DNA of 64,000 nt, from contig PRDH01000044.1 of NCBI GenBank assembly GCA_003345545.1, positions 96,001 through 160,000 on the forward strand. The letters are read 5' to 3'. Every line of letters begins with the position of its first letter. Position 1 is the stretch's first letter. The notes under the pieces were generated by a model. That model was given only the letters and a program-made list of their open reading frames with translations. It searched no databases and was not told the DNA's origin. The DNA is from Candidatus Thorarchaeota archaeon (GTDB lineage: Archaea; Asgardarchaeota; Thorarchaeia; Thorarchaeales; Thorarchaeaceae). The position numbers and the translations under genes are program-made. Shown here piece after piece: positions 8,964-55,353 of this stretch.

Positions 8964-9085
8964 AACTTGTTTTTCTTATTCGTTGTTACTAGATGGCTTT
9001 TCCGCTCTGGGCTGTATTTGAAAACCTGAGGTTTAGTAACTTCCAAATAGCAGTGATTTGTTGAGTATGGTGAGGATATGTCACA

Positions 9086-17329: not shown

Positions 17330-18182
17330 TGTCCTGCAAAAAGCTCTCTTTGGACCTGCAGGCTATCCTGACACCGCGCGGGGAAGCCTGAAGAGAGTCT
17401 TCAAGATACTTGTGGATGCAGGAGCAACCGCCTTGGAATATGCGGCAGTCTACGGATTGCAGGCATCGGAAGGCAAGGCAAAACAAATCGGCGACCTTGC
17501 CCGACAGAGCGGAATCATGATGAGTATGCACGAAGCATATTATATCAATTTCGCATCCAAGGACCCCAAAATACGGGAGAAATCAAGACAGCGGTTAATC
17601 CATGCCCTCAGGTTCTCACCGTTGATGAGTGTGAAACGAATTGTGTTTCATCCTGGCACACAGGGCGGCATGATCCCGGCAGAGGCACATATCGTTGTGA
17701 GGGATGCCTTGAGAAGTGTCTGGGAAGAAGCTGGACGACGAGGTAGAGGAGCATTTCTGGCACCCGAAATAGCCGGCAAGATAGTCATGTACGGTTCGGT
17801 CGACCAGATCATAGCACTCTGCCACGATGTGGAAGGGTGCATTCCTACGATTGACTGGGCGCACCTGTACGCACGAAGCCAGGGCAAGATAAACGATAGA
17901 GAGAGCTATCTGAAGATTCTGGCGCAGTTCGAGAACGCACTTGGTAGTCTGTTTGTGGACAATATGCACTTTCACATTAGCGGAATCACATTCACTGAGA
18001 AGGGAGAGGTATCTCATCAACCATGCGGCGAAGAGTGGGGCCCTGACCTCCACCCGATGATGGAGATCGTGCACGAGCTTGGTTACAAGCCTACTTTCAT
18101 ATGCGAATCGCCAAATCCTCTTCAAGGAGCTTTGTTTGCCAAGTTCTTATTCGAACAGATAGAGATGGGAAGAAATGAATGA
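17298..18182 (+). CDS. Endonuclease IV-like TIM-barrel protein
   Basis: FGPAG, H..YYIN, VFHPG, APE..GK, IDWAHLYAR, HFHISGI, ICESP. Confidence 0.88.
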   Translation: MSPLKWTRRNDVLQKALFGPAGYPDTARGSLKRVFKILVDAGATALEYAAVYGLQASEGKAKQIGDLARQSGIMMSMHEAYYINFASKDPKIREKSRQRLIHALRFSPLMSVKRIVFHPGTQGGMIPAEAHIVVRDALRSVWEEAGRRGRGAFLAPEIAGKIVMYGSVDQIIALCHDVEGCIPTIDWAHLYARSQGKINDRESYLKILAQFENALGSLFVDNMHFHISGITFTEKGEVSHQPCGEEWGPDLHPMMEIVHELGYKPTFICESPNPLQGALFAKFLFEQIEMGRNE

Positions 18183-19515
18183 ATATGCCTTCGTACTGGG
18201 CTCGAACTGGTTGCTCAGCATAGCAGAACTCCTGGCACACGTACAGGACAGAGGCCTTGGAGTCACCCTCGTAGATCACTCGAGGCATATCGCTATCCTA
18301 GATGTGAAGGAGAAACTAGACAACAACCAAATCGTCGATATCCAGAGTTCACTAGGAGGGTGCTACAAGACTGGTCGAGTAATCTATAGATACGATATTG
18401 ATGTTGTTAGGAACGCGTTTCCCGTTGATGGCAAACTCACAAAGGAAGACCGTGATGAACTCATAAAGATGCCATGGCTCCCCAGGGTGTGGCAGAATCC
18501 GAGGGCGAAGAAGATCAAGTTTGGAGTAAGCACATATCCTGAGTTCGATGGCAGGTCTGCCATTCAGTACAGAAGATTCACGCGAACGATGGATGAACAA
18601 ATCAAGAGTGCCCTGATCGAAAAAGGAGCAAGGAAGGTCGATTATTTTGCCTATGACAAACCAGACAAGCGAGTGACCGAGAGAATGAACCTCGCACTCT
18701 GGCCAAAGTCAATTGCTGAGAACAATCTTCTCTTTCCCCCGAACAGCGAGATTCTTGCGGCATTCACCGCGAAGTACCTGTACTTTGCCAGAACGCTTGT
18801 CGTCTACGATTCTGCTCTCCAACAATATCGCGATGAATCACGACCATACATATCTTCTGAGATAAGTACAAGTCCAAAGATCTGCAGAACTCTGTTGAAC
18901 CTGGCAGGAGCAAGACCAGGAGATACTGTACTTGACCCGTTCTGCGGAACAGGCACACTTCTCATGGAAGCTGCCATGCTTGGAATGAAGGTCATAGGTG
19001 TAGACATTGAAAGTAACCAGGTCCAAGGCACAAAATCGAACCTAATCTGGTTCGGAAAGGACGCTGGGCAGCGAGTGGATTTTGAGGTAATTCGAGGAGA
19101 CGCTAGAGAGCTCTCAAAGCTCGTAAAGAAACGAGTTGATGCGATTGCATTCGAGCCTAGTCTAGGTCCAATCTACTCGAAGCCGCCTAAGAGAGGCGAT
19201 GTAGAGGCCAGCGTAAGAGAACTGACGGAGTTGTATCGTACAGTGCTGACCCAGGCCGCAGAGATATTACATCCAGAAGGCCGTGTTGCCATGACCATTC
19301 CTGTCATTGTCACAGACGGGGGTACGACTTCGATAGAGGTCAGAGAGATGCTCAAAGGAACAGGATTCGAAGTCTATAAGCTACTTCCTTCGGGGTTGAT
19401 TCAGAGCAGAAGTGAGGGTGACAAGAGACTGCGAATCAATCCAGATAGAGACCTTCTTCCAGAGCGTAAGAGAGGGCAGTTCGTTCAACGAGCTCTCATT
19501 GCACTAACGAAGTAA
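18175..19515 (+). CDS. Trm11-like SAM-dependent RNA methyltransferase
   Basis: STSPKICRTLLNLA, VLDPFCGTGTLLMEA, GVDI, GDAREL, EPSLGP. Confidence 0.8.
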   Translation: MNEYAFVLGSNWLLSIAELLAHVQDRGLGVTLVDHSRHIAILDVKEKLDNNQIVDIQSSLGGCYKTGRVIYRYDIDVVRNAFPVDGKLTKEDRDELIKMPWLPRVWQNPRAKKIKFGVSTYPEFDGRSAIQYRRFTRTMDEQIKSALIEKGARKVDYFAYDKPDKRVTERMNLALWPKSIAENNLLFPPNSEILAAFTAKYLYFARTLVVYDSALQQYRDESRPYISSEISTSPKICRTLLNLAGARPGDTVLDPFCGTGTLLMEAAMLGMKVIGVDIESNQVQGTKSNLIWFGKDAGQRVDFEVIRGDARELSKLVKKRVDAIAFEPSLGPIYSKPPKRGDVEASVRELTELYRTVLTQAAEILHPEGRVAMTIPVIVTDGGTTSIEVREMLKGTGFEVYKLLPSGLIQSRSEGDKRLRINPDRDLLPERKRGQFVQRALIALTK

Positions 19516-23732: not shown

Positions 23733-25082
23733 TTATCCTGAAGTGATGGTTGCACCTTCGATAACGATAGAAGGTGTGACCATCGAGAAGGTCGTTCGAC
23801 TGTCACTTCCCACATGGCTTATCCGCCTCAAGAGATCACGCATATTGATTCCAATCAGAGTGTTCTTGAGCGCGTGCTGAATCTCGCCATTCTTGACGTA
23901 GTAGCCCTCACCAATCATGGCACTGAGGTCGCCAGTAGTCAGGTTGGGACTATCGCCAGTATTCCTGCATACCACGCCCTCATCAAGCTCTGAAATGAGT
24001 TCATTGAGGTCGCCCTTCCCTGGGGATACGATGAAGTTGGTCGTGGAGATGTCTGGCAGTCCAGAATAAGAGGGTCTACTGGCATTGCCAGTGTTGTCTA
24101 CATTTTCTTTGTTCGCAGTGTAGGAGTTGTGAAGGAGGCTCCTGAGGACACCAGCTTTGATGACTGAGGTCCGCTGCGATGGAAATCCTTCTGCATCAAA
24201 CGATCGTGTGCCAATCCCGCCTGGTAGCAGCCCATCGTCAACTATCTCTAGCTTTTCAGATGCAATGCCCTCGCCTAATGCATCTGTAATGTATGATCTG
24301 CCCATTTGGACCTCATCAGCGTTCACTGCATCGGCCAGCCCGCGTCCAAGAATGGCACTTGCTCCGAGCGGTGCAAACAAAACGGACATCTCTCCACCAT
24401 CGATTGTCTTGGGTCGCAAGAATCCTCTTGCAAGTTCTGCAGCGTTCGTACCAACCCATTCAGGGTTGATTTCATTCAACCTTCGTGAAACCTGATATTC
24501 ATAACTTGCAGTCTGATCCTTGCCATCCTTAATGATTGGGTATGTATAGATAGAGATACATGTTTTCCGCTCACTCTTGACTATGCCAAGAGAGTTTACA
24601 ATTGCATTGACGCCTGAGGAACTCTGCACTGCTGCCTCAATCGCATGGCTCCATTTGTCGAGTGACCCCTTGCATGCATCAATTGCTCGAATTAGGAGGC
24701 CTGTAGTCTCCTCCGAGGTGAGCTCATCGAGTTCCTTGTCGAATATACCTCTCGCCGAGTGATGGGATGACTCCGAATTCGGAAGAGTCACAAAGTCAGG
24801 ATCAGCGATGGATGCCCTTGCGAGGCTCATCGAGTTGGTAACGGCCTCCTCAATGTCTGAATCATTGAGCGTTGTCACATAGGCAAATCCTATCTTCTTG
24901 CCGACAATCGTCCGAATCCCTATGCCAGCATCTCTTGTTTCGCATGCGTTCTTGATTGAGTTGTTCTCAGCAGTAATTTCAAAAGATCTGCTCTGTGCCA
25001 GATAGGCTTCAGCTTGGCTGGCGCCCATTTTTTCAGCAAGCGTGATTGCTTTTTCACCAATCGCAAGCAGAGGACTGAGCAT
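23733..25082 (-). CDS. TldE/PmbA-family protein
   Basis: GIGIR, FDAEG.P, TGNA.R, TGDLS; lacks HExxxH. Confidence 0.9.
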   Translation of the reverse strand: MLSPLLAIGEKAITLAEKMGASQAEAYLAQSRSFEITAENNSIKNACETRDAGIGIRTIVGKKIGFAYVTTLNDSDIEEAVTNSMSLARASIADPDFVTLPNSESSHHSARGIFDKELDELTSEETTGLLIRAIDACKGSLDKWSHAIEAAVQSSSGVNAIVNSLGIVKSERKTCISIYTYPIIKDGKDQTASYEYQVSRRLNEINPEWVGTNAAELARGFLRPKTIDGGEMSVLFAPLGASAILGRGLADAVNADEVQMGRSYITDALGEGIASEKLEIVDDGLLPGGIGTRSFDAEGFPSQRTSVIKAGVLRSLLHNSYTANKENVDNTGNASRPSYSGLPDISTTNFIVSPGKGDLNELISELDEGVVCRNTGDSPNLTTGDLSAMIGEGYYVKNGEIQHALKNTLIGINMRDLLRRISHVGSDSRTTFSMVTPSIVIEGATITSG

Positions 25083-26468
25083 CTACATACCTCCTACAGG
25101 CACTTTCCTGATTCTTGCGTGAGGCCCGCCAGCCATTGTCGGTACTGCCTGACCTCCCTTGCTGCACGTTCCTGCATCAAGCAGGAAGTCTTTACAGACA
25201 GCATCCACTTTAGCAAGCACTTCCAGGATGTTACCCGCAAGGGACACATCTCTGACCATCTGACCTTTCTCACCATTCTCAATCACATAGCCGTAACTCG
25301 CTTGAAACATGAATTGCCCTTTTGCAGACTGTGTGTACCCATAGTTGGGACTACAGAGAATGATGCCATTCTTCGTGTCTTGGATGAGTTCATCGACCTG
25401 CCAGTCTCCAGTTTCCATGTAGGTGTTGCTCATCCTCGGTAGTGGCTCATGCATGAATGACTGGCTCCTAGCAGCACCATTTGGCTCCAAGTCGAGTCTT
25501 GTTGCGGTTTCGAGGCCATGAAGTAGCTCAGTCAGAATGCCATTCGTGACTAGATGCCTTCTTGTTGCTCTTGTCCCTTCCCAATCATACTCATAGGATC
25601 CTCGCATTCCCTCAAGAGTGGGATCATCCGTGATGCTCAGATTATCCGGTCCAACTTCGGTTCCAATCCTGTCTTCGAGTACAGTCGCATGTGCTGGCCA
25701 ATTGTCTGCCTCAACAGCATGGCCAAAGGCTTCATGGACCATCACGCCATTTAGAATGGGGTCCATCACAACATCGTAGACTCCCCCCTTGGCACACACA
25801 GAAGATAGCAGGTCAATCACGAGTTCCCCAGCAGCGGTCCCGATATTCTGCGCCTCACTGGCGCTCATGACTTCGTATCCACCTCGCAGACTCAACGACT
25901 TGAATGTACTTTGTCGGTTTATGCCATCTTTGGCTGTCGGGGCAGAGATGATACGTGGAATAGCGTTTTCAGTATAGATACTTGTACCGAGAGAATTAGC
26001 AACATAGAGCTCAGTCCAGAGGTCTGTATAAACAGTTCGCGTCGAAGAGATGCGCCTGTCGTAGTCCCGTGTCTGATCGTCAATCATCTTGGCGAATGCC
26101 ATCTTCTCATCAATAGAAATACTGCTGAAGGGTTTCCTCGCACTATAATGAAGACGGTCTTGAAATGATGGACCATCTATCGCGAATCGTTCAGTGGTCT
26201 TCTCTCTGGTTGCGAGAGCCATCTTTGCAACCGACCTGCCCATAGACCTCATACCATCTCCGGTCAGGTCAGTCGTCTGGGCAAATGCCCAGGCACCATC
26301 AACAAATGCTCGCATCCCTGCGCCCTTGATGCGGGATGATAATGACTGCTTGGAAACACCGTCATTGAGTTCTATGATTGTTGTTGCGCTGTTCTCTATT
26401 CTCACGTCTGAAAATCGGGCGCCGGTTTTTAGGGCAGATTCAATGGCAATCCGCGCAAGGTCTTCCAT
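25083..26468 (-). CDS. TldD-family metalloprotease
   Basis: HEAFGH, DWEG, PRMSNTY, GTCSKGGQ. Confidence 0.92.
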   Translation of the reverse strand: MEDLARIAIESALKTGARFSDVRIENSATTIIELNDGVSKQSLSSRIKGAGMRAFVDGAWAFAQTTDLTGDGMRSMGRSVAKMALATREKTTERFAIDGPSFQDRLHYSARKPFSSISIDEKMAFAKMIDDQTRDYDRRISSTRTVYTDLWTELYVANSLGTSIYTENAIPRIISAPTAKDGINRQSTFKSLSLRGGYEVMSASEAQNIGTAAGELVIDLLSSVCAKGGVYDVVMDPILNGVMVHEAFGHAVEADNWPAHATVLEDRIGTEVGPDNLSITDDPTLEGMRGSYEYDWEGTRATRRHLVTNGILTELLHGLETATRLDLEPNGAARSQSFMHEPLPRMSNTYMETGDWQVDELIQDTKNGIILCSPNYGYTQSAKGQFMFQASYGYVIENGEKGQMVRDVSLAGNILEVLAKVDAVCKDFLLDAGTCSKGGQAVPTMAGGPHARIRKVPVGGM

Positions 26469-26597: not shown

Positions 26598-28208
26598 ATG
26601 CCTCTTCTAGATGTGACCACCGGAGGTACTCAGTTGACAGAAGAGGCAACATCTGAACTGTGTCGATCCTGCCAGAAGAACAGAGCAACCCACATGTGTG
26701 AAGACTGCGGAGCAGCACTTTGCTTAGAATGTCTAGATAGCAGAACCACTGAGTATAGTGTATGTGGAGACTGTCACCACTCTCTCGGAGAAGCCATACC
26801 TGGGGAGAAATTCGAGAGCTGTCCTGAGTGCAAATCTGAGAACCTCACCAAGGGAAAACGTACTATTGATATTTGCGCTAGGTGTCACTCGGTTCGGGTC
26901 GTTGTCCTTGAGGATAAGAGAAGGACACTAGCCCTTGAAATGCGCCATGCCGTCATGACAATTCAGTATGGACATACCAAGCTTCGCGAATTCAACAGCA
27001 AACTCAGTGTCACTAAGCGTCTATTGGTGTCGCTCAGGATGGCGAATTTTCTCCATTACAAGTGGCTCGAAGAAAAGATAGAGGCAATCCAAGAGGAACT
27101 GCCAGCAATCAAGAACCGAATCGGAAGTCAGGCAGAGATAGTAGCCAGAAGGATGTCTGCTGAAACCAAGAACTTCATAGACTATGCTCTTTGGAGCCCA
27201 TCCCAATTTCCATTCATTGAGGGAATAACCAACAGAATCACAGAGCTCGGAATCTACTACAAACAAAACGTTGACGAGGCAATCGAGTCCCTCAGAACCA
27301 CACTGAAGGATGTCAAGAGGCAATTGGATGGTCTCGATTACTATAGGAATCACTTCACAAACTTCTACGAACATAGCCAGCTCTCTGTCGGAGAGCTCCC
27401 AGTGTGCGCTCTACCAGACGTGAAAGTAGCAGGAAGTGATTTCCTCAAGAACGACAAGGCCCTAGGAACACTGTACCTGACAAATAAGAGGCTCTTATTC
27501 TTGGCTGAGACTGGAAGAGTCCGCAGAAAGATGGAAACAATCTTCGATTTTCCGCTTCTTTATCTGAAGTCGATAGAGGAGGACGGGCGGTTTCGAAAGA
27601 GGCTAGTCCTGAAGCTCAAGCAGGGCGATGTGAGAATATCTTGTTCGGACCAGACAAAGAAGGTCTTACCAGACTATGTGGAGATCGCTCGCAAGTTCGA
27701 TAGGTATGTCCAGACGGACATGCAGAGAGTGCGCAAAATCGAGCAAGAAGAAGTCAGTATCAGCGATGTGAGGCTAAAGATCGAAGGGATGGTCTATTCA
27801 CTACTATCACCGAACAAGAAACAAGACGATGCCACAGCAATCGGGTCAGACCTTCGGTACCGAACCCAACCTTGGTCCACGTCCCAAGTTCAACCAAGGG
27901 AGATTCCTTATGGCACAGGCTACACGTCCCCGGAATTCTTCAGAAGGGATTTGGAGAGAACAATTGGCCGGAGCAGCCAGCCGCAAAATGGTGACATGCA
28001 ATACCGACCAAGCGAATCTATTGATACCCTTCAAAGAAACTCGGAGTCCATCTATGGAGCCATACGAGAAACTGTACACTTGTTGAGAGATGGTCGCTTA
28101 GTGACAGAAGACTTCATTCGAAGGTACAAAGATCTCATGAGAGATTCCTATCTCAACAGAAGAGAGATTCAGCGCCTCTCAAGAGAGTCCAGAGATCAAT
28201 TCTGGTAG
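26598..28208 (+). CDS. ESCRT-associated multidomain protein: B-box/FYVE-like Zn fingers, coiled coil, GLUE/GRAM-like PH domain, steadiness box
   Basis: Six CxxC pairs in aa ~22-96; long heptad region; GTLYLTNKRLLF...PLLYLKSIEE PH/GLUE motif; C-terminal AIRETVHLLRDGRLVTEDFIRRYKDLMRDSY resembles the Vps23/TSG101 steadiness box. Confidence 0.7.
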   Translation: MPLLDVTTGGTQLTEEATSELCRSCQKNRATHMCEDCGAALCLECLDSRTTEYSVCGDCHHSLGEAIPGEKFESCPECKSENLTKGKRTIDICARCHSVRVVVLEDKRRTLALEMRHAVMTIQYGHTKLREFNSKLSVTKRLLVSLRMANFLHYKWLEEKIEAIQEELPAIKNRIGSQAEIVARRMSAETKNFIDYALWSPSQFPFIEGITNRITELGIYYKQNVDEAIESLRTTLKDVKRQLDGLDYYRNHFTNFYEHSQLSVGELPVCALPDVKVAGSDFLKNDKALGTLYLTNKRLLFLAETGRVRRKMETIFDFPLLYLKSIEEDGRFRKRLVLKLKQGDVRISCSDQTKKVLPDYVEIARKFDRYVQTDMQRVRKIEQEEVSISDVRLKIEGMVYSLLSPNKKQDDATAIGSDLRYRTQPWSTSQVQPREIPYGTGYTSPEFFRRDLERTIGRSSQPQNGDMQYRPSESIDTLQRNSESIYGAIRETVHLLRDGRLVTEDFIRRYKDLMRDSYLNRREIQRLSRESRDQFW

Positions 28209-28212
28209 TACT

Positions 28213-28830
28213 CTACATCCCCAACTCACGTTCTAAGGATTTGATGTCATCCTCTAGAGACTCAATCTCGCCAAGGGGTTTCTTTACTGCAGCAGCGTCT
28301 GTAAGACCTGCTTCTATGTCAATCTCCTGCATTGCAGACGTGAGATCTTCAGACGAGATCTCCATAGTCGAGTCAAGAGCCTCATCGGATATGTCCGTTT
28401 CAATCTCGAATTCTTCAAGGCGTCGAGCAATCTCGTCAACGTTCGCGACGACCTTTGTCGAGTCAGTAGATTCGCCCAGCATGCCAAGAATCTTCGCCAC
28501 TTCCTGAAGAGCTAGAGAGGTCTTTGCCGACGTCTGAGCACGATTCAGGTGTGCAAGGATTTTTAGAATCTGAAGTCGTGACTTGTCGACGGAGAGCGCG
28601 TAGCGTCTGAAGCGGATCATCTCGGTAGCATAGGTTCGATATGCGTCAACCTGCCCGCCCTTCCGCGCACGTACAGCCCTGGCGCGTGTATCCTGTTCCT
28701 CTTTCTCGAGTTTGTTTCTCTGTCGAGCAAGCTGTTTGCTCAGGATTCTTAGACGACTGGAAATCTCACCAACATCTGGTTTCTTCTTACCCCAGGCAAA
28801 TGCCTTTCTTATTGAAGCCAAAGAATTCAC
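28213..28830 (-). CDS. ESCRT-III (Snf7 family, Vps2/24/46-like)
   Basis: Basic N-terminal helical hairpin, acidic C-terminal half, terminal amphipathic MIM1-like helix (LEDDIKSLEREL); adjacent to Vps4. Confidence 0.85.
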   Translation of the reverse strand: MNSLASIRKAFAWGKKKPDVGEISSRLRILSKQLARQRNKLEKEEQDTRARAVRARKGGQVDAYRTYATEMIRFRRYALSVDKSRLQILKILAHLNRAQTSAKTSLALQEVAKILGMLGESTDSTKVVANVDEIARRLEEFEIETDISDEALDSTMEISSEDLTSAMQEIDIEAGLTDAAAVKKPLGEIESLEDDIKSLERELGM

Positions 28831-28902
28831 CTTACTCCTGAATCAAGGATTTGAATCAATGATGATGGGCTATTCGTTTAAACCTTCGTAGCTACCTGCT
28901 CT

Positions 28903-28928
28903 CAACAACGCGCTCTCGTGCGTTGTTG
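28903..28928. promoter_or_regulatory. Inverted repeat in the divergent ESCRT-III/Vps4 promoter region
   Basis: caacaacgc-N8-gcgttgttg flanked by TATA-like tttaaa (28877) and tataaa (28929). Confidence 0.45.
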
Positions 28929-28983
28929 TATAAACGACACAGAAAGTCTTAACATCCTACACACATTGTACACATGAACACGC

Positions 28984-30213
28984 ATGGCCGGATCGGATAG
29001 TGATAGATTGGACCTGGGGCTCAAGACTCTGCTCGACAGAGCCATAGAACTCGATCAGAGAGGAATGAAGAACGAGGCGTGCCAATTATACCTCAAGGCA
29101 AGTAAGATATTGATCAAGCTTTCAAACTCAGCCGCTCTTCCAACCATAAGAAAACACTACTTCAATCGCGCCCAAGAGTGCGTTGATAGGGTTAGATTCC
29201 TCTCAGGCATTAAGAAGAAATCGGCAGGACCTGTTGATGGTCTTGCTGAACCGCCAAAGGCAGACTTTGGTCCTGCCAAGCCTACGCGAATCAAGCAAGC
29301 ATCCAAGGTTGAGCAGGAGATTGACGAGGATGCGAAACGACTGCGAGAGATGATCTCGGACACAATCATCTCTGAGCGGCCCAAGATCAAACTGTCTGAA
29401 GTTGCTGGACTCGAAGACGCAAAACAGGCGATTAATGATGCAATAGTCACACCAATGAAACATCCGGAGCTATTCAAGGGCAAGGCAAGACAGCCATGGA
29501 GAGGAATCCTATTCTTTGGACCAGCAGGCTGTGGAAAGACACTCATTGCAAAAGCAGTGGCATCAGAGGTGAACGCGACATTCTTCAATGTCTCTGCCGC
29601 GAACATCGTCAGCAAGTGGTTGGGAGAGTCCGAACGCTTGGTCATGAGCCTCTTTGAACTGGCCAGAAAGAATCAGCCTGCAATCATTTTTGTTGATGAG
29701 CTCGACTCTATCGGTGTGTCGCGCTCTGGAGATGATGTTGGGGGAGAACGACGACTTAAGACCCAACTGCTTACAGAGCTTCAGGGTCTTGGAAGCAATC
29801 CAGAAGACAGAATCACTCTGATTGGAGCCACGAACCTACCGTGGGAGCTGGACTTTGCACTTCGGTCGAGATTTGAGAAGAAAATACATGTTCCACTTCC
29901 TGGACGAGAGGCAAGAACAGCAATCTTTGAAACCCATATGGAAGACATCGAGGTTTCTCCGACCATTGACTACGAAGAGATGGCAGATCTGACCGAAGGG
30001 TACAGTGGTCGAGACATAAGCATCGTCTGCCGAGAGGCAGCAATGGAACCAATCCGAGACCTTCAGCGCACTGGAAGAATGGACGATGAGAGAGAAATCT
30101 TGGACATCCGGCCCGTTTCAAGGGAAGACTTCTTGAGCGCCATCGAGAACATCAGACCTGCAACTCCCCCAGAGGATGTCAGGAAATACATTGACTGGGC
30201 GGAGGGTTCTTAG
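28984..30213 (+). CDS. vps4: Vps4 AAA+ ATPase with N-terminal MIT domain
   Basis: MIT (RAIELDQ...EACQLY...AQECVDRV), VAGLEDAK, PWRGILFFGPAGCGKT, SKWLGESE, FVDELD, ATNLPWELD, TEGYSGRDI. Confidence 0.93.
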   Translation: MAGSDSDRLDLGLKTLLDRAIELDQRGMKNEACQLYLKASKILIKLSNSAALPTIRKHYFNRAQECVDRVRFLSGIKKKSAGPVDGLAEPPKADFGPAKPTRIKQASKVEQEIDEDAKRLREMISDTIISERPKIKLSEVAGLEDAKQAINDAIVTPMKHPELFKGKARQPWRGILFFGPAGCGKTLIAKAVASEVNATFFNVSAANIVSKWLGESERLVMSLFELARKNQPAIIFVDELDSIGVSRSGDDVGGERRLKTQLLTELQGLGSNPEDRITLIGATNLPWELDFALRSRFEKKIHVPLPGREARTAIFETHMEDIEVSPTIDYEEMADLTEGYSGRDISIVCREAAMEPIRDLQRTGRMDDEREILDIRPVSREDFLSAIENIRPATPPEDVRKYIDWAEGS

Positions 30214-30216
30214 AGG

Positions 30217-30954
30217 TTGGGCATGAGAGAGAAGCGGAAAGAGAAACGAAGAGAAGAGGCCCAGGAAGAACCAGAAGATACTGAGGTGGTCAGGACAGTT
30301 CAGGAGGCAGAGACCTCCCCAGTAATAGAGGAAGACATTCACACACCCGAGGTCATCATTGGGAAGCCCGATGCGACTGAAGTAGTCTCTGAGAATGAAG
30401 CTGTCACAGACGAAACCGAAGCAGAGAAACTTCAGAGCGTACCAGTCGTTTCGATGCCCCCTTGGGGTAGCCCCGAGGAGAGCGAATGGATGTACGGTGT
30501 TCCTCCAAGAGAAGAGGATAGAATCTTGTGGGCAGAGGAGTGGTCAGATTATCTGCTTCAATGGGCAGAACTCAAACAGATCCATGTACTATCCCTTGCT
30601 GTGTTCATTAGTGAACCTCCTTTCAATGATTTGAGAAACAAGGTCGACTCCTTCAAGATGATTTCCGAGGTCCTCATCGATAAGGAGGTGGCGGAATGGA
30701 GTGATAGGCGAAGACGCCAACTCAGAATCTTTTGGAAACCACTTGAGGACTGGGCGGACCTGATATATGAGTGGTCCCTGAGAACAGGAAAGCTAAGACT
30801 AGATGTGAAGTCCATAGTGATACAGGAGTCAAAGGAGAGCTTTGCAAAGCTTCCTGAAAGAGACCTCCATGTTGTTATGGGGTTGATGGTAGAGAAAGGA
30901 TTTGCTGAGTGGATTGATAAGAAGAAGGGCGCAGTCCTGGTATCGACTCAGTAG
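30217..30954 (+). CDS. Vps25-like ESCRT-II subunit with acidic disordered N-terminus
   Basis: PP motifs (MPPW, VPPRE), WSDYLLQW, IFWKPLEDWADLIYEW, LMVEKGFAEW match tandem Vps25 winged helices. Confidence 0.8.
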   Translation: MGMREKRKEKRREEAQEEPEDTEVVRTVQEAETSPVIEEDIHTPEVIIGKPDATEVVSENEAVTDETEAEKLQSVPVVSMPPWGSPEESEWMYGVPPREEDRILWAEEWSDYLLQWAELKQIHVLSLAVFISEPPFNDLRNKVDSFKMISEVLIDKEVAEWSDRRRRQLRIFWKPLEDWADLIYEWSLRTGKLRLDVKSIVIQESKESFAKLPERDLHVVMGLMVEKGFAEWIDKKKGAVLVSTQ

Positions 30955-31772
30955 GCTCCTTGGTTTGAGGTTTCAGGTTTATCTCGTGCTCTGAGACCCG
31001 GAAAATAATACCTCCCGCCTGTTGAGAAACGGATATCTGCAACTGCCATTCCGGTTTCTACGAGGCTCGTGAGCACTTGACGTGCATGATCTTCGGACCA
31101 TTTGAGCTGCATCATCACGTCTTCTACTGAAACATGACCTTTCGATGCTGCCAGGTTGACCACATCAGCTTGATCACGGCGGAGTTCGAGCGGCCTTAGC
31201 TCTACGACCTTCACTCCTCCACGAAGAGTCCGAATGCCAGGCAACAGACCGTTCTCTGACACCCGATTGACTGCCTCGATTACATCATTGTATGTAACGG
31301 ATTTCATCTCAGGAAGACGGCGTACGACCTCGACAATGAGCTCCGCAAGCCCCATTAGTCCCTTCGAAGCGTGCTCAGTCGCAACATCAAGTATTGCTAA
31401 GCCAATATAATCATAGTACTGGTCAGCATTCATTCCCTGATAGGACGTTGCGGAAGCACTCTCGCGGAGCCTGAGAAGGTCAGCAGCATCTGGAAAGACC
31501 TCTGTTATCCGTTCGCCTGCAAAGAAGCCCCCGACATCCAGTCCGCTTCGCTTCAGATTATCAATATGGCTCCGCACCTCCTGAAGGAGTGCTTGTGATT
31601 CTCTCTGGAATGATCCAATATCAACAGCACCCAGGTCATACAGCTTCTTCAGCTGGTCAAGCGTGGCAATGGAGGCATAGAGTTCTGTTTCGAATCGCTC
31701 CTGCATCGGTGATAGTTCCTTCTCTATTCTGAAAGTCCGCACAATGCTGACAAGACTCATTAAATTGCTCAT
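30948..31772 (-). CDS. Vps28 N-terminal domain fused to Vps22/Vps36 (EAP30) winged helices
   Basis: ELYASIATLDQLKKLYDLGAV...F...QALL resembles Vps28-NTD. YYDYIGLAIL...GLMGLAEL...VTYNDVIEAV...PLEL..DQ..V...KWSEDHARQVL..LV..G.A..D....YYFPGL matches EAP30. Confidence 0.8.
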   Translation of the reverse strand: MSNLMSLVSIVRTFRIEKELSPMQERFETELYASIATLDQLKKLYDLGAVDIGSFQRESQALLQEVRSHIDNLKRSGLDVGGFFAGERITEVFPDAADLLRLRESASATSYQGMNADQYYDYIGLAILDVATEHASKGLMGLAELIVEVVRRLPEMKSVTYNDVIEAVNRVSENGLLPGIRTLRGGVKVVELRPLELRRDQADVVNLAASKGHVSVEDVMMQLKWSEDHARQVLTSLVETGMAVADIRFSTGGRYYFPGLRARDKPETSNQGAY

Positions 31773-33622: not shown

Positions 33623-34975
33623 CTATCGCGGCTTTTCGAGAACTATTACCCATTCACCGAGCATTCTCTCTTTCCGAGGGATTCGAATGAAATGGCGAAT
33701 CAACTTGGAGAAGAACACTCTGTCAAGCTGGAATCCTGTCCTTTCGGTCGCAATCTCCGTGAGAATCTCGTGCGATTTCACTAACACGCCACGGATGAGA
33801 TTGCTACCTATCGCAATGCAGTAGTGACCTCCAGGCTTCAGGACTCTCATGGTCTCTGTCAACTGTGCTTCCATGTCGTCAAAGAACTTGTAGACAATGT
33901 ATGAACGTCTTGGGTCTGTCTCGAATATTCGCGCAAGTATTGGATCAAGTGTTTCCAGATTGGTGACTCGAAGACCCTGATAGTCCGTCTTGTAGACTGC
34001 TTCTGTTCCAATGTAGCGTCGTTTCACGTTCGCGAGAGGGCCATCCTCGTCGAGCAAGTCCAACCAGTACATCTCCAGTTGATGAGTACGCGGGTAATCT
34101 ACGGCATTGATGTAAGGGGGCGATGTTACTGCCAAGTCAATGCTCTCTGAATCTAGGCCCGTATGTATTGCAGTACTCTTGGGGAGCTGAACATCCCACC
34201 TCGCAGAAGACGAGTAGACCTCCCAGAGCTCGTTCATTGCAGCTACTTGCTTTGAAAGTGTGGTGAGAAATCTGGATATCGTGTCACCTGGGGCAATCTT
34301 CTTGATGATTCTCTTTCTGAGCACTGTCCGGGTGCAATGTGAATCTGCATTCGAAACGTCACGGATAATCGAAGACAAGACGACTCTCAGGAAGTCTCGA
34401 ATATCAAAGAGCAGGTCCCGCTCCATGTCAGCGTACAGTCTGGGGACTTCGTCGATGCATTTCTTTAGCATGGCCAACTCCTTGAGCACAAATGGTCGAA
34501 ACCAACTGTCACGGTAGTTGAACTCTGGGATAATGCCATCGAACTCGCCATCCTTGTCAATGGATTGGATACTCGTTGAGAGGGATGACACCACATTTTT
34601 GAGAAGACTCGGACAAACGGGAGTAGTCTTCACCTTTGTGAGGAGCTGTGCAATTGCATCCACATCAATTCCTACTCCTCTCCGGTTATTCAGTACTGCC
34701 TCAAGAACGGCGGTGCCACTTCCACACATTGGATCTAGCACCGTATCACGTTCATTGGAGAACCTGCGAATTAGATACCGAGGGAGTTCCGGAAAGAATT
34801 TTGCAGGGAACTTGTGAATTCCATGTGTAAGATAGGACTGGTCCTTGCTGACAATTAGGATGCTTGACCCATCAGGAATCACGGTTGTTGGGTCAATGTC
34901 TCCGATGAACTCCAAATGACTCTGGGAATCCCGAGCGACTTCTGTTGACTCCAGATTAGAAACTCGATTTACCAA
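33623..34975 (-). CDS. DNA methyltransferase (probably N4-cytosine), no adjacent endonuclease
   Basis: HGIHKFPAKF.P, VLDPMCGSGT (motif I) precedes VTSPPY (motif IV), RVLKPGG. Confidence 0.88.
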   Translation of the reverse strand: MVNRVSNLESTEVARDSQSHLEFIGDIDPTTVIPDGSSILIVSKDQSYLTHGIHKFPAKFFPELPRYLIRRFSNERDTVLDPMCGSGTAVLEAVLNNRRGVGIDVDAIAQLLTKVKTTPVCPSLLKNVVSSLSTSIQSIDKDGEFDGIIPEFNYRDSWFRPFVLKELAMLKKCIDEVPRLYADMERDLLFDIRDFLRVVLSSIIRDVSNADSHCTRTVLRKRIIKKIAPGDTISRFLTTLSKQVAAMNELWEVYSSSARWDVQLPKSTAIHTGLDSESIDLAVTSPPYINAVDYPRTHQLEMYWLDLLDEDGPLANVKRRYIGTEAVYKTDYQGLRVTNLETLDPILARIFETDPRRSYIVYKFFDDMEAQLTETMRVLKPGGHYCIAIGSNLIRGVLVKSHEILTEIATERTGFQLDRVFFSKLIRHFIRIPRKERMLGEWVIVLEKPR

Positions 34976-43068: not shown

Positions 43069-43493
43069 AATGACTTTCTGATTCGTTTTGACATCCGATC
43101 CAACTCGTCTCGCGGAGCCATTGAGTCGTGATACCCTGGTGGAAACTTGAAACCAAATGGGTCGGCATTGTTTCTGGGAATCACGTGAAAATGCAGGTGT
43201 GGCACGTCTTGCCCAGCACCCTCACCATTTGCTATGACATTGATTACACCGTCTGCTCCCGTCGCTTTCGATACTGCCTTTGTCAGCTCTGACAGTTTCA
43301 CAGACATATGAGAAAGAACATCATGGTCAACATCCATCATGTTGACAAAGTGCCTTTTCGGTATGAGTAGACAGTGTCCGGTTGTTATTGGAAAGACATC
43401 CATGAAGGCCATACAGATGTCATCCTGATATATCACGGAGGATGGCACATCACCTTGAACAATCTTGCAGAAGATACAATCCTTTGAACTCAT
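43065..43493 (-). CDS. HIT-family nucleotide hydrolase
   Basis: CIFCKIV, GHCLLIPKRH, AGQDVPHLHFHVIPR. Confidence 0.95.
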   Translation of the reverse strand: MSSKDCIFCKIVQGDVPSSVIYQDDICMAFMDVFPITTGHCLLIPKRHFVNMMDVDHDVLSHMSVKLSELTKAVSKATGADGVINVIANGEGAGQDVPHLHFHVIPRNNADPFGFKFPPGYHDSMAPRDELDRMSKRIRKSF

Positions 43494-43612
43494 GTCTCGG
43501 TACTTTGAATAAGTGCGAAATAAAGAATTCGAAGTGCTTGAGTGACGTGCGCACAAGTCTAATTAGCGTGATTGACCCGAATGAGAATAACAGGTTACTT
43601 GGGTGCATCCTC

Positions 43613-44803
43613 TTGAGCGGAAGAAGGCCAAAGGTTTACTTCGACCAGACACAAAATGAGCGCGGAAAGCTGGACAGTACATACTCTGAACTGGGTCAAA
43701 TCCTGAGGGATAACGACTTTGACGTAGAACCCTATACAGAATTCATGCTTCTTGCCAAGAATCTGAGAGAAGCGGATGTCCTGGTATTCGGATGTCCTAA
43801 TAGCTCCAAAGTACGACCTCCTGAGATAGATGTTTTGCAGAAGTACGTCAAGAATGGGGGCGGTCTGATGTTACTATCGCTCTCAGGTGGCGATAGAGGC
43901 CTCATGAATAATATGTCACAGATATCACAGGAGTTTGGAATCTCTTTCGACAATACAGCAGTCAAGGATGACAGGAACAACGCGGGGATTCCCACCATGC
44001 CAGTCATCAGCGACATTGTCGCTCATCCGACGACCGAGAACGTGGGAGAACTTCTCATCCCTTCTGCCTGCAGCCTTCATGTCAGTGGCAAGGCAGTCGC
44101 TCTGGCCCGGACATCACAGGTGGCAGAACCAAGTAGGGCGCCCATTGTTGCAGCCGCAGAGGTTGGAAAAGGCCGTATAATGTGCATTGGGAGCTATGAG
44201 ATCTTCAGAAAGGGCGGGGGTCTGAAGCACGAAGGGAATACGACATTTGCAATTAATGCATTCAAGTGGTTGAGTAGAGAACTGCAGGCAACAAAGCCCA
44301 GCACTGCTGCCACGGAGCAAACAAAGACAGAGAGTGCCAAGGCAAGAGGGGAGCTAAGAGAGGCTGATACTGTGCCTACAGCGGAGATCGAAAAGACACT
44401 TAGAAGGCTGGTCAATGCTGTGGTTGACCTTCAGAAAGACATCTCCAAGATGAATGAACAGGTCGGGAATGTTGAATCCCATATTGAGCTTCTTAGAAGT
44501 CAGTTCCAAGAGTTTGCAGAGAAGACACAACAACAACTGGGTGTCATGATGCCAGCAAAGCAGTTCAAGACTCCCGAGGAGAATAGGGCTGCAGATATTG
44601 AGGCAGACATCAGATCCCTACTAAAAGAGACAGAATCAATTCAGCAGCTCTGCGAACATATCGAACAGAGGTATGCATCTGGAGCCATGGCAAAAGAAAC
44701 CTATACCGAACAGATGGAGAGTCTAAACGCCAGAATCGTTAGTATAGGGAAGAAGATTGAGAAGAAAGAGAAGGAGCTTGAACAATTCAAGACGGAGGGC
44801 TAA
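43613..44803 (+). CDS. IFT52/GldG (GIFT)-like domain plus coiled coil
   Basis: VYFDQTQNE, EIDVLQKYVKNGGGLMLL...GG....NNMSQI..EFGI.FDN.AV resembles the IFT52 N-domain; long C-terminal heptads. TTG start assumed. Confidence 0.7.
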   Translation: MSGRRPKVYFDQTQNERGKLDSTYSELGQILRDNDFDVEPYTEFMLLAKNLREADVLVFGCPNSSKVRPPEIDVLQKYVKNGGGLMLLSLSGGDRGLMNNMSQISQEFGISFDNTAVKDDRNNAGIPTMPVISDIVAHPTTENVGELLIPSACSLHVSGKAVALARTSQVAEPSRAPIVAAAEVGKGRIMCIGSYEIFRKGGGLKHEGNTTFAINAFKWLSRELQATKPSTAATEQTKTESAKARGELREADTVPTAEIEKTLRRLVNAVVDLQKDISKMNEQVGNVESHIELLRSQFQEFAEKTQQQLGVMMPAKQFKTPEENRAADIEADIRSLLKETESIQQLCEHIEQRYASGAMAKETYTEQMESLNARIVSIGKKIEKKEKELEQFKTEG

Positions 44804-48639: not shown

Positions 48640-50721
48640 TCACAACTCCAAAGTTGCAGTGCTCCCCAGACCAGCCTTGGCCACTTCAACAATGGGAACA
48701 CCTTCCCATCCCTGCACATCGGTGTGTGTGATCAACAGAATCTGTTCGAAATTGTTGTCATTCATCAGATTGGAAACAACGGACTCTCTACGAGCCTTAT
48801 CAAGCCCTCCTAGCGGCTCATCAAGCATCACTGTCTTGACGCGAGGAGTGATGATGGGGCTGTTTTTCAGGGGACGAATTCTGCTCATGGTACGGCTAAT
48901 TCCAAGTCTGAGCGCGAGGCTTATTGCAGTCCTGTCTCCAAAGCTGAGCTGTGAAGTCTTCTTCCACGCTTGGTCGCGTTCATCCCATATCTTGAGAAGC
49001 AGTCCAGCGCCGGAGCGTTTCGTGGCTGGAGTTGGTTCGAGGTCGATGCGTGTGTACTGACCGTTGGTGAAGGACTGAACATACTGATTCGTTGCACTCC
49101 TGATGATGCCAATCAGTCTCTTCTGAAAGACGTAATCTGCGACAAATCCGTTCACAAGATTCCGACGTACGTATTTTGCATGCACATTGAGGTTCTCCAG
49201 TTCCTTTATCTCAGCGCCCATCTGTCGCATCTGGACTTCCTTCCCTTCCAGTTCTGAGATGAGCGTCTGTTCCTTTCGAATGTTCTCTTCGATTTCAGAG
49301 GTTCCTCTCTTTGCCTCTCGAAGAACAGCTTCCAAGTTGCCAATCTTACTGTGGACTTCCTCAAGCGTTGATACTCCGAACTTCTTGAGGAGAGATTTCA
49401 CATCAGGAATGCCTAAAGCCCTAAGCAGGTCCGACAGTTCCTGCTCGGATTTCTTAATGGATAGTCGTATGTTCTGCATATGTTCCTGAATTGACTTTAT
49501 CTTCTCCAACGCATTGGTGGAGAGAGCGATGGCTGACAGCCTCTGCTCGAGCTTCTTGACTTCGATTATCTTCAGCTTCCGCTCTTTGTCAAGCTCTTTA
49601 GCACTTAATTCACCATCACGCAATGACTTCTTGTAATTGGATACAAGACTGTCACGCTCCTTCGCTGACAGAGGTTTCGAGCAGGTTGGGCATATCGCTT
49701 CATCCTTGCCATCACGAGTTCTAGTGAGCATGTCTATTTTCTCATTCAGATCTTCGTGCATCCCGGTGACCTTGCCCATCTTCTCAGAGATGCCTGTCAC
49801 ATCAGCATTCAGGCTCTCCCGCTCTGAGTCTACTCGCTCCTTCTCTCTCTTGAGTGATTCTGAACGTGCTTCGATGATTGCAGCTTCAGCATCGAGTATG
49901 CCTGCCTGCGGGAGGTTCGTGTCAATCTCTTTCTGACTGAGATCAAGTTCATGTTCTTTCTTCTCGATCTCATCAGATATTCTGCTGACTGTTTTCAGTG
50001 TGGCACTATCAGGAATACCCCTTAGCTGCTTCTCAACTGAGACTATCTCTTTACTCCGGCTCTTTATCGATGCCTCATAGTCCTTGATTCGTGCCCTATT
50101 TTGACCTATCTGCTCCTTGATATCCTCAGGTGACCGATAGTCATCACGGAGATTCTTGATTCTCGTATCAAGATTCGACTCGAAATTCTCAAGATGACTG
50201 GACATGCGATTGAGCAGCTCAATATCATAGATTTCAACCAAGAGATTTCGAAGCGCCACAGGACCTGCTGTAGATATCGTTGCAACCTCGCCCTGGCGGA
50301 CCAAGAGCGTGTTCTGGGCCTGCTTCCACTCCAAGCCTAGAATCTCGTCTATCTTCGCTGCAACAGACTGAGTCTTGTCGGCAATTCTCTTCCAAGCACG
50401 CCCAGACTTTATGTAGAGTACTGCATTTGTCTTGTCTGCAGAACTGTATGACCTCTCTATCTTATACTGCGCTCCTACCACATCAAATGTCAGAGTGGCA
50501 CTGCAGAATGTCGAACTGAAACTGACGAGTTCGTCATTATTCAGTCCCAGGGCGTCCGAGCCCCACAGAGCCCAGAGTATCGACTCAAGAAGAGATGACT
50601 TTCCAGTAGAGTTTGGCCCTCGTATGATTATGAGCCCATTTGGGAGATTAGATTCGTCACTCGGCAGAGTTAGCTCCCGAAATGGCTTGAAATTGTGGAC
50701 CTCTATCTTCAAGAGCTTCAT
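48640..50721 (-). CDS. rad50: Rad50/SbcC SMC-like ATPase
   Basis: GPNSTGKS, Q-loop VRQGE, CPTC zinc hook, LSFGD signature, LDEP, LITH. Confidence 0.9.
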   Translation of the reverse strand: MKLLKIEVHNFKPFRELTLPSDESNLPNGLIIIRGPNSTGKSSLLESILWALWGSDALGLNNDELVSFSSTFCSATLTFDVVGAQYKIERSYSSADKTNAVLYIKSGRAWKRIADKTQSVAAKIDEILGLEWKQAQNTLLVRQGEVATISTAGPVALRNLLVEIYDIELLNRMSSHLENFESNLDTRIKNLRDDYRSPEDIKEQIGQNRARIKDYEASIKSRSKEIVSVEKQLRGIPDSATLKTVSRISDEIEKKEHELDLSQKEIDTNLPQAGILDAEAAIIEARSESLKREKERVDSERESLNADVTGISEKMGKVTGMHEDLNEKIDMLTRTRDGKDEAICPTCSKPLSAKERDSLVSNYKKSLRDGELSAKELDKERKLKIIEVKKLEQRLSAIALSTNALEKIKSIQEHMQNIRLSIKKSEQELSDLLRALGIPDVKSLLKKFGVSTLEEVHSKIGNLEAVLREAKRGTSEIEENIRKEQTLISELEGKEVQMRQMGAEIKELENLNVHAKYVRRNLVNGFVADYVFQKRLIGIIRSATNQYVQSFTNGQYTRIDLEPTPATKRSGAGLLLKIWDERDQAWKKTSQLSFGDRTAISLALRLGISRTMSRIRPLKNSPIITPRVKTVMLDEPLGGLDKARRESVVSNLMNDNNFEQILLITHTDVQGWEGVPIVEVAKAGLGSTATLEL

Positions 50722-52028: not shown

Positions 52029-52037
52029 TAGCAGGCC

Positions 52038-53810: not shown

Positions 53811-53819
53811 CTCACATTA

Positions 53820-55112: not shown

Positions 55113-55353
55113 GGTATCGACACTCTCCGCCGAATGGCAAGAACGCAGAGTCCTATGATTCGTTGTCTTGACCGAGTCATAAAAAGCTAGCACTCGACCC
55201 TGAAGAGAGTCCTCTAGATGGAGAAAACCGCGCCGGATTACGGGGCAGATATGTATAGAGTCGCAATTTCCTTTTAAGGAACCATCACAACGGTTCAATG
55301 ACAGAGGCAGTTCTGGCGCGACCGTGCTAGTGAAACTGACGGGAAGTGATCGT

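Follow-up and report, generated by a model that had tools for sequence, protein, structure and literature searches.

Asgard ESCRT systems bear on the origin of eukaryotic membrane trafficking, and the closest described counterpart of the locus analyzed here comes from another Thorarchaeal MAG, ThorAB25, whose orthologous genes ThorAB25_08990-09030 were assayed by yeast two-hybrid in a study that also reports Thorarchaeota as lacking ubiquitin (Hatano 2022, PMC9192718). As presented there, the ThorAB25 locus comprises five genes in the order SB protein, ESCRT-IIIA, Vps4, Vps25 and Vps22, and the same order is found in our window, the 64,000-nucleotide stretch of contig PRDH01000044.1 (Candidatus Thorarchaeota archaeon) under study. 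Makarova 2024 (PMC10936438) described both the Znr_CC_PH_SB family and a steadiness box (SB)-fused Vps22 and proposed that the former, cog.011556, belongs to ESCRT-I and binds membranes via its PH domain. The Asgard Vps22 of that survey, cog.002769, carries an N-terminal hairpin ahead of tandem winged helices, as does the protein encoded here.

Identity of the five-gene cluster

The first-pass annotation had read positions 26598-31772 as five contiguous ESCRT genes, and open reading frames, Pfam matches and structural models recover all five exactly there. Two of them lie on the minus strand (28213-28830 and 30948-31772) and the other three on the plus strand, so the cluster must comprise at least three transcription units. 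Gene and domain identities are based on Pfam, on profile matches to the PDB and on comparisons of AlphaFold models with solved structures, and the domain assignments originally made for each gene hold throughout, with the PH domain specified as GRAM/GLUE type, the adaptor hairpin as SB-like and the Vps22 N-terminus as Vps28-NTD-like. The Pfam and PDB-profile E-values behind the identities of the four genes other than the adaptor lie far beyond chance.

Taken as a whole, the stretch is best explained, with good probability, as the standard Thorarchaeial ESCRT cluster, orthologous to ThorAB25_08990-09030. Long identical motifs are common to P0001, P0004 and P0005 of the window and the ThorAB25 sequences printed in PMC9192718; ThorAB25 differs in being another MAG, apparently of another species, with no functional difference visible. 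In three other MAGs the locus tags of homologues lie five genes apart, and in a sister family Vps4-Vps25 is likewise convergent with the Vps28N-Vps22 gene, with the adaptor and Vps22 genes on different contigs. The cluster thus confirms what is already known: its domain layout and missing ubiquitin are real, both had been reported before, and the window contributes no new component. On the question raised at annotation, whether such permuted wiring had been described, the architecture, the Thorarchaeial lack of ubiquitin and the ThorAB25 locus are all in print.

Domain architecture of the encoded proteins

The first gene (26598..28208, plus strand) encodes the 536-residue adaptor P0001 (AlphaFold model pLDDT 80), which matches no Pfam family, is orthologous to ThorAB25_08990 "SB" and belongs to the published family cog.011556, and which we regard as a likely ESCRT-I-like component. 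Its 165 homologues, of which those with names are nearly all Thorarchaeota, range from 51 to 95% in identity. As in cog.011556 (Znr_CC_PH_SB) generally, N-terminal zinc ribbons, a coiled coil and a PH domain are present, with a C-terminal hairpin as putative steadiness box; family sizes run from ~520-540 residues in Thorarchaeota to 624-742 in another sampled Asgard family and ~650 in a published Lokiarchaeum protein, and outside Thorarchaeia the adaptor profile match often ends ahead of the hairpin.

The N-terminal Zn module (residues 20-103; 26655..26906, plus strand) combines an eight-cysteine B-box/RING-like part with a C4 zinc ribbon and holds six CxxC pairs that are invariant or almost so among 54 homologues, with C75, C78, C93 and C96 invariant and C34-C59 nearly so. 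In profile searches the module is weakly similar to fingers of the FYVE, RING, B-box and PHD types (E 0.025-1), and three adaptor homologues carry a Pfam B-box annotation. In the AlphaFold model there follows a coiled-coil stalk (residues 104-259; 26907..27374, plus strand) of three long helices, 104-149, 155-189 and 201-252, each 35-52 residues in length and with block-mean pLDDT of 73-97. The PH-like domain of GRAM/GLUE type (residues 254-371; 27357..27710, plus strand) superposes on MTMR2 PH-GRAM with Z 13.3 (rmsd 2.8, 107 aligned residues), on Lam6 with Z 12.9 and on the EAP45 GLUE domain 2hth_B with Z 11.4 (rmsd 3.4, 106 aligned; all VIA-align), and Foldseek pairs it with 2dx5_A at a TMt of 0.66, such that the GRAM domains of MTMR2 and Lam6 match it as well as or better than GLUE does. 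A linker modeled as disordered (residues 408-471) separates the PH fold from the C-terminal, steadiness-box-like helical hairpin (residues 475-535; 28020..28202, plus strand), whose helices span 475-497 and 503-535 (block-mean pLDDT 78-96 across residues 471-530) and which in profile search weakly matches 2f66_A, the core of yeast Vps23 (E 1.1), and docks in the manner of Vps23-SB in the complex models described below.

The last gene, on the minus strand, encodes the Vps28N-like/Vps22 fusion (30948..31706, in an ORF open to 31772). Because most homologues measure 252 residues, translation probably starts at M23 (position 31706), and the protein would then have that same length. It matches Pfam EAP30 (PF04157; 1e-13, 51.5 bits versus a cut-off of 26.8) and human Vps22 (SNF8; 7e-16, or 7e-20 with the family profile). 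Its tandem winged helices (VIA-align ranges 88-239; 30990..31445, minus strand) align by Foldseek with 2zme_A at 4e-9 and also with 3cuq_A and 1u5t_A. Its N-terminal helical domain (ORF residues 23-102; 31467..31706, minus strand) superposes over 78 residues, at rmsd 2.0-2.1, on chain 6vme_U of the human ESCRT-I headpiece (Z 11.2, rmsd 2.1), on 2f6m_D from the yeast Vps23-C:Vps28-N entry (Z 10.0) and on yeast Vps28 2caz_B (Z 9.0). At the sequence level, the family profile reaches the yeast Vps28 NTD at E 0.1, and a sister-family orthologue exceeds the Pfam VPS28 (PF03997) cut-off with 26.9 bits against 24.5; Pfam VPS28 finds no match in the window's own copy. Whereas cog.002769 was described as steadiness-box-fused, the N-domain here is specifically Vps28-NTD-like over these 78 residues. 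The model has the N-domain, a short linker and then WH1 and WH2, with the Vps28 C-terminal four-helix bundle absent; since the N-domain directly precedes the winged helices, the protein carries a Vps28N-like module and is not itself a Vps28.

Between these two genes, an ESCRT-IIIA of the Vps2/24/46 class (28213..28830, minus strand; 205 residues; Pfam Snf7 5e-10, 39.7 bits) finds its best PDB matches in CHMP1B (6.5e-9), CHMP2A and CHMP3, and its orthologue is called ESCRT3A in Hatano 2022 (PMC9192718). Vps4 (28984..30213, plus strand; 409 residues, MIT-AAA-lid-Vps4_C) is recognized in Pfam by AAA (1.7e-38, 132 bits), AAA_lid_3 and Vps4_C (22.3 bits, cut-off 21.3), with an MIT match (E 3e-5, 24.4 bits) under the cut-off of 30. 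Vps25 (30217..30954, plus strand; 245 residues) starts at a TTG codon 4 nt past the Vps4 stop, matches Pfam ESCRT-II (PF05871) over residues 106-193 (2e-13, 51 bits versus a cut-off of 27) and bears an acidic N-terminal extension of ~90 residues, with an N-terminus alignable by eye with ThorAB25_09020.

The predicted adaptor-Vps22 contact and its alternatives

A pairing of the adaptor SB with the Vps28N-like module had been anticipated from the sequence, and controlled complex prediction supports it: the C-terminal hairpin of the adaptor docks on the N-terminal hairpin of Vps22 with an ipSAE of 0.81 over three runs, compared with a best-of-three value of 0.01 for controls, with a partner pLDDT of 69 and contacts 100% identical between runs. 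In the calibration of the tool, 58 of 80 solved complexes attain this mark, as do 2 of 110 mismatched pairs, counts that apply only approximately to this docking because custom alignments were used. The residues at the interface, namely A33, T37 and L41 of Vps22 (ORF numbering) and F506, Y510 and M514 of the adaptor, vary less than the rest of each hairpin (entropy 0.67 versus 1.36, p 0.006, and 0.90 versus 1.73, p 0.002), the predicted contact lying on the best-conserved positions. The score may nonetheless echo memorized solved Vps23-Vps28 headpieces; it speaks for likeness rather than binding, and the conserved hairpin faces could instead be used for a different partner or for self-association. 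The text of Hatano 2022 (PMC9192718) lists no two-hybrid interaction between Thor SB and Vps22, and we found no statement of this specific contact in the literature examined.

We tentatively entertain a reading in which Thorarchaeia have no boundary between ESCRT-I and ESCRT-II, the adaptor SB feeding straight into the Vps28N-like module of Vps22 and so opening a hard-wired route that needs no ubiquitin and leads from the adaptor through Vps22 and Vps25 to ESCRT-III. If true, such a route might keep an ancestral state that preceded a separate bridging Vps28.

It is rather doubtful that the Vps28N-like hairpin serves chiefly for Vps22 homodimerization, much as the N-terminal helical domains pack in the eukaryotic Vps22/Vps36 stalk, with the adaptor joining ESCRT-II by other means or never. 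Such a role would fit the self-interaction of Thor Vps22 in yeast two-hybrid given in Hatano 2022 (PMC9192718) and the Foldseek match of Vps22 and Vps36 chains to the entire model, its N-helices among the aligned parts, whereas the contrast between heterodimer and control scores and the resemblance of the N-domain to the Vps28 NTD in both fold (rmsd ~2) and sequence argue against it. The eukaryotic headpiece consists of three hairpins (Makarova 2024, PMC10936438), and a hybrid arrangement, a three-hairpin headpiece of two Vps22 chains and one adaptor, would be compatible with homodimerization.

Conventional wiring would instead require a separate Vps28. The first-pass annotation had noted that canonical UEV-Vps23 and full-length Vps28 elsewhere in the genome could fill these roles; UEV was not found, and the Vps28-like candidate detected, P0247 (410 residues, helical; contig C37, 20180-21412), is weakly similar. 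That this divergent protein is the true SB partner, bridging via a Vps28-CTD-like bundle, strikes us as improbable. Its family is kept across Thorarchaeota, a relative's orthologue aligns with Pfam VPS28 positions 16-185 (E 0.0012, 19.1 bits, cut-off 24.5), and the family profile lists the Xenopus Vps28 CTD 2j9w_A (E 0.36) as one of two PDB matches; every one of these matches is, however, sub-significant, the genome's own copy has no Pfam match at all, the protein is all-helical and also weakly matches ApoLp-III and BAR, its Atlas neighbors are unnamed clusters partly labeled Bathyarchaeota or Nitrososphaerota, groups without ESCRT-I/II, and its gene is unlinked to the ESCRT locus. We give hardly any credence to the adaptor being a mere neighbor of the ESCRT genes, whether as a lipid-binding protein or as a scaffold of the TRIM-like B-box/coiled-coil kind, as the weak B-box/RING/FYVE resemblance of its Zn module, its lack of an ESCRT family in Pfam and the location of the sister-family adaptor gene off the Vps4-Vps25-Vps22 core contig might suggest, given that adjacency is preserved among Thorarchaeal MAGs, that the SB-like hairpin has a predicted conserved Vps22 interface, that no ubiquitin system is available to an E3 and that the adaptor has been put forward in print as a likely part of ESCRT-I (Makarova 2024, PMC10936438).

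Proposed ubiquitin-independent assembly and relation to eukaryotic ESCRTs

The proposed absence of a visible ubiquitin module or UEV extends to the genome: profile searches of the locus and of the whole 2.69-Mb assembly detect neither ubiquitin nor UEV nor E2, although a completeness of 93% makes such absences less than absolute, the strongest UEV and ubiquitin matches having E-values of 0.33 and 0.48 and E2 giving none. Class-wide, ubiquitin is found in 0/87 genomes, compared with 107/151 across the phylum as positive control. The adaptor family, in turn, occurs in 80 of the 111 Asgard genomes sampled and in most Asgard families, ubiquitin-bearing ones included; being so widespread, it looks ancestral and appears to run beside the ubiquitin route where one is present, and the label "shuffled", which implied a derived rearrangement, is not supported. 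This larger genome set extends the evidence both for a class without ubiquitin and for an adaptor family common in Asgard archaea.

In the mechanism we consider likely, the adaptor would be held at the membrane via its putatively membrane-binding PH domain, with the Zn module perhaps a further membrane or cargo binder. Its SB hairpin would engage the Vps28N-like hairpin of Vps22, reproducing the Vps23-Vps28 headpiece contact but directly on ESCRT-II, and Vps22, which self-associates in the two-hybrid data of Hatano 2022 (PMC9192718), would carry Vps25. As the organism has no ubiquitin or UEV step, recognition would have to be ubiquitin-independent. The chain first suggested, from adaptor through bridge and Vps25 to ESCRT-III and Vps4, keeps its SB-Vps28N link in complex prediction and loses its in-locus step from Vps25 to ESCRT-III: judging by its sequence matches, the ESCRT-III of the locus is of the CHMP1/2/3-like class rather than the Vps20/Snf7 class nucleated by Vps25. 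A second copy lies on a different contig (C19) and has Heimdall ESCRT-IIIB and Snf7 as its nearest matches, so the link is not closed inside the locus. Vps25 would accordingly be expected to nucleate this Snf7-like ESCRT-IIIB, with ESCRT-IIIA joining next and Vps4 taking the polymer apart through MIT-MIM contacts.

Thorarchaeia offer a natural test case for ubiquitin-free ESCRT-I/II-like machinery, and the window supplies a predicted docking of the adaptor hairpin on the Vps28N-like module that is specific enough to be tested, with its conserved residues named. By fold comparison, the adaptor domain resembles the Vps36/EAP45 GLUE domain (2HTH, 2DX5) as a PH fold of GRAM/GLUE type, but it sits on the SB-bearing adaptor rather than on an ESCRT-II subunit, its model lacks a zinc-finger insert and its organism lacks ubiquitin as a ligand. 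The predicted Thor complex is analogous to the hairpin-on-hairpin contact of the eukaryotic ESCRT-I headpiece (2F6M, 2CAZ, 6VME); unlike eukaryotic ESCRT-I, however, the Thor system has no UEV, Vps37, Mvb12 or Vps28 C-terminal domain, and its Vps28N-like module lies covalently within the ESCRT-II subunit Vps22.

Layout and surroundings of the ESCRT locus

Open reading frames, Pfam searches and structural models confirm the five-gene ESCRT locus of the first-pass annotation. According to the ORF listing and translation, it opens with the adaptor gene (P0001, 26598-28208, + strand, 536 aa), followed by a Snf7/ESCRT-III gene (28213-28830, - strand, 205 aa; Pfam Snf7, 5e-10), a Vps4 gene (28984-30213, + strand, 409 aa; Pfam AAA, AAA_lid_3, Vps4_C and MIT), a Vps25 gene (30217-30954, + strand, 245 aa; Pfam ESCRT-II/Vps25, 2e-13) whose TTG start codon lies 4 nt past the Vps4 stop, and the gene for the Vps22 protein P0005 (30948-31772, - strand, 274-aa ORF; Pfam EAP30, 1e-13). 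Housekeeping genes (ArgRS, two TldD/PmbA genes, AspRS, a methylase and an aminotransferase) stand on both flanks, so that the five genes form a compact island. The TldD/PmbA metallopeptidase genes are a tandem pair (23733-26468, - strand) immediately upstream of the cluster, and two proteins of ~450 aa each with N6_N4_Mtase/UPF0020 methyltransferase domains are encoded on its opposite sides with a spacing of ~14 kb (18175-19515, + strand; 33623-34975, - strand). Farther along, four co-directional genes in a row (48640-55367, - strand) represent an ordinary archaeal DNA-end-resection operon, three of whose products are a Rad50-like ATPase (AAA_23/SMC_N), an Mre11-like phosphoesterase and a HerA helicase; Pfam matches nothing in the fourth gene (53820-55367), a possible NurA.

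The same five genes occur in identical order in ThorAB25 (locus numbers 08990-09030), and the locus tags of P0001 and P0005 homologues show a five-gene spacing in three further MAGs. In the sister family, Vps4-Vps25 is convergent with Vps22, as in the window, and the adaptor gene lies on a contig other than that of Vps4-Vps25-Vps22. Homologues of both proteins with a named source are nearly all labelled Thorarchaeota.

Adaptor, Vps22 protein and their predicted contact

P0001 has no significant Pfam match (DZR at E 0.69), and its single-sequence PDB search returned only noise (a retinoblastoma-like protein at E 0.02). The AlphaFold model, built from an alignment of 54 homologues (pLDDT 80), resolves a Zn module at aa 20-103 with six CxxC pairs, where C75, C78, C93 and C96 are invariant among the homologues and C34-C59 nearly so, three long helices (aa 104-259), a β-sandwich ending in a C-terminal helix, a disordered linker (aa 408-471) and a confidently modelled helical hairpin (aa 475-535). 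By VIA-align, backed by Foldseek, aa 254-371 fit MTMR2 PH-GRAM (Z 13.3, rmsd 2.8 over 107 residues), Lam6 (Z 12.9), BBS5 (Z 11.9) and, as a GLUE domain, that of EAP45 (Z 11.4, rmsd 3.4 over 106 residues), so that the modelled fold is a PH of the GRAM/GLUE type, GRAM and GLUE being indistinguishable. The family profile weakly matches the yeast Vps23 core (2f66_A, E 1.1) and cross-brace zinc fingers. On inspection of the sequence, FYVE was dismissed as an identity for the Zn module, whose weak FYVE matches come without the R(R/K)HHCR signature. The top Foldseek matches, to DH-PH RhoGEFs (rmsd ~20 Å, TM 0.2-0.3), were likewise discarded, because the alignment is a composite of "helices plus PH".

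As P0005 homologues are mostly 252 aa long, its start is likely M23 (31706). The C-terminal part is Vps22, matching human SNF8 by sequence (7e-16) and profile (7e-20), with a Foldseek match at 4e-9. VIA-align fits the model's first 80 residues to 6vme_U, a human ESCRT-I headpiece chain (78 residues aligned, Z 11.2, rmsd 2.1), to a chain from the yeast Vps23-C:Vps28-N entry (2f6m_D, Z 10.0) and to yeast Vps28 (2caz_B, Z 9.0); the profile search ranks four Vps28-NTD chains from yeast (E ~0.1) next after Vps22. The orthologue from the sister family, within the same class (L012:1450-2247, genome G001), exceeds the Pfam VPS28 cut-off (26.9 vs 24.5 bits), also passes EAP30 and weakly matches Vps23_core, and gives the clearest sign of the Vps28N-Vps22 fusion at sequence level. 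The P0005 model lacks the Vps28 C-terminal bundle, with winged helices coming straight after the N-domain.

The first-pass annotation had proposed that the adaptor hairpin pairs with this Vps28N-like module, wiring ESCRT-I to ESCRT-II, an interpretation that is partly supported overall. Complex prediction with Vps22 aa 23-114 (numbered on the ORF), adaptor aa 440-536, family alignments and controls gave ipSAE values of 0.81-0.82 in three runs vs 0.01 for the best of three controls, with 100% contact agreement among runs and a partner pLDDT of 69. When the tool was calibrated, 58 of its 80 solved complexes attained this mark, as did 2 of its 110 mismatched pairs, counts that apply only approximately to the family alignments used here. 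The prediction speaks to likeness rather than binding, and since the ESCRT-I headpiece is already solved, the pass may reflect memory of that structure. In each hairpin, the residues at the predicted interface are the ones best conserved (entropy 0.67 vs 1.36, p 0.006; 0.90 vs 1.73, p 0.002); among them are A33, T37 and L41 of Vps22 in the ORF count and F506, Y510 and M514 of the adaptor. The literature text available to us, figures aside, does not describe a direct contact between the two modules.

Vps28 candidates and ESCRT-III copies

The host assembly (2.69 Mb, 82 contigs, completeness 92.9%, contamination 5.4%; the window being C44:96001-160000) holds nothing credible for Pfam VPS28. Its sole match (E 0.1), at the C-terminus of a GIFT-domain protein, is taken as chance similarity to a generic coiled coil, because the same region fits dozens of coiled-coil families equally well. 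That protein (43442-44803, + strand, 453 aa) combines an IFT52-type GIFT domain (aa 65-174, Pfam 2e-15) with a long C-terminal coiled coil, and an archaeal GIFT domain is of some interest in its own right. Weak VPS28 matches in four relatives fall on helical proteins of 411-481 aa, one of which is 60% identical to their host-genome orthologue P0247 (C37:20180-21412, L014:1501-2733; 410 aa from M35), a conserved helical protein of Thorarchaeota whose gene adjoins that for D-aminoacyl-tRNA deacylase. P0247 could possibly be a divergent Vps28, and would then rival the Vps28N-like module of Vps22, given the sub-threshold Pfam similarity of a relative to full-length Vps28 (E 0.0012) and the family profile's match to the PDB Vps28 CTD (E 0.36), but for P0247 itself Pfam and Atlas are silent or unspecific, Atlas giving unnamed clusters only.

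The in-locus ESCRT-III had also been cast as the partner of Vps25. An ESCRT-III is indeed present, but it is nearest to CHMP1B, CHMP2A and CHMP3 and corresponds to "ESCRT3A" in Hatano 2022 (PMC9192718), whereas a second copy (C19:22747-23424, L004:1444-2121, 225 aa), isolated far from the cluster between inositol monophosphatase and HAD hydrolase genes, is nearest to Heimdall ESCRT-IIIB and Snf7, so that the subunit expected to be nucleated by Vps25 lies, judging by these affinities, outside this locus. Vps25 itself carries an acidic N-terminal extension of ~90 residues (30217-30490, + strand), probably disordered; a 2025 MK-D1 ESCRT preprint, which does not cover steadiness boxes or Vps28, reports a similar extension in the MK-D1 Vps25 model.

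Ubiquitin and relation to published Asgard ESCRT systems

The proposed lack of a ubiquitin module holds: in the 92.9% complete host genome the best ubiquitin (E 0.48) and UEV (E 0.33) matches fall below curated cut-offs and no E2 matches, and ubiquitin is matched in none of the 37 genomes of the family or the 87 of the class. The same search is positive in 107 of 151 Asgard genomes, with matches in nearly every other family, and therefore works. Among 111 sampled Asgard genomes, each at least 90% complete, the adaptor profile is matched in 80, including 29 of 29 from the window's own family; six of the families searched have no match. It also matches most genomes of many ubiquitin-bearing families, so that the adaptor family is not a Thor-specific substitute for ubiquitin recognition.

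The components, domain layout and lack of ubiquitin are already published. Makarova 2024 (PMC10936438) presents Znr_CC_PH_SB (cog.011556), with its membrane-binding PH domain, as a likely ancestral component of Asgard ESCRT-I and describes Asgard Vps22 (cog.002769) as carrying a fused steadiness box. Hatano 2022 put the ThorAB25 orthologues through yeast two-hybrid assays, reports that Vps22 interacts with itself and describes Thorarchaeota as seemingly without ubiquitin, and a 2023 preprint describes Loki- and Thorarchaeia as being without UEV-Vps23. To this picture we add the controlled prediction of an adaptor-Vps22 contact with a conserved interface, a class assignment for both ESCRT-III genes, a broader genome tally and the Vps28-like candidate P0247.
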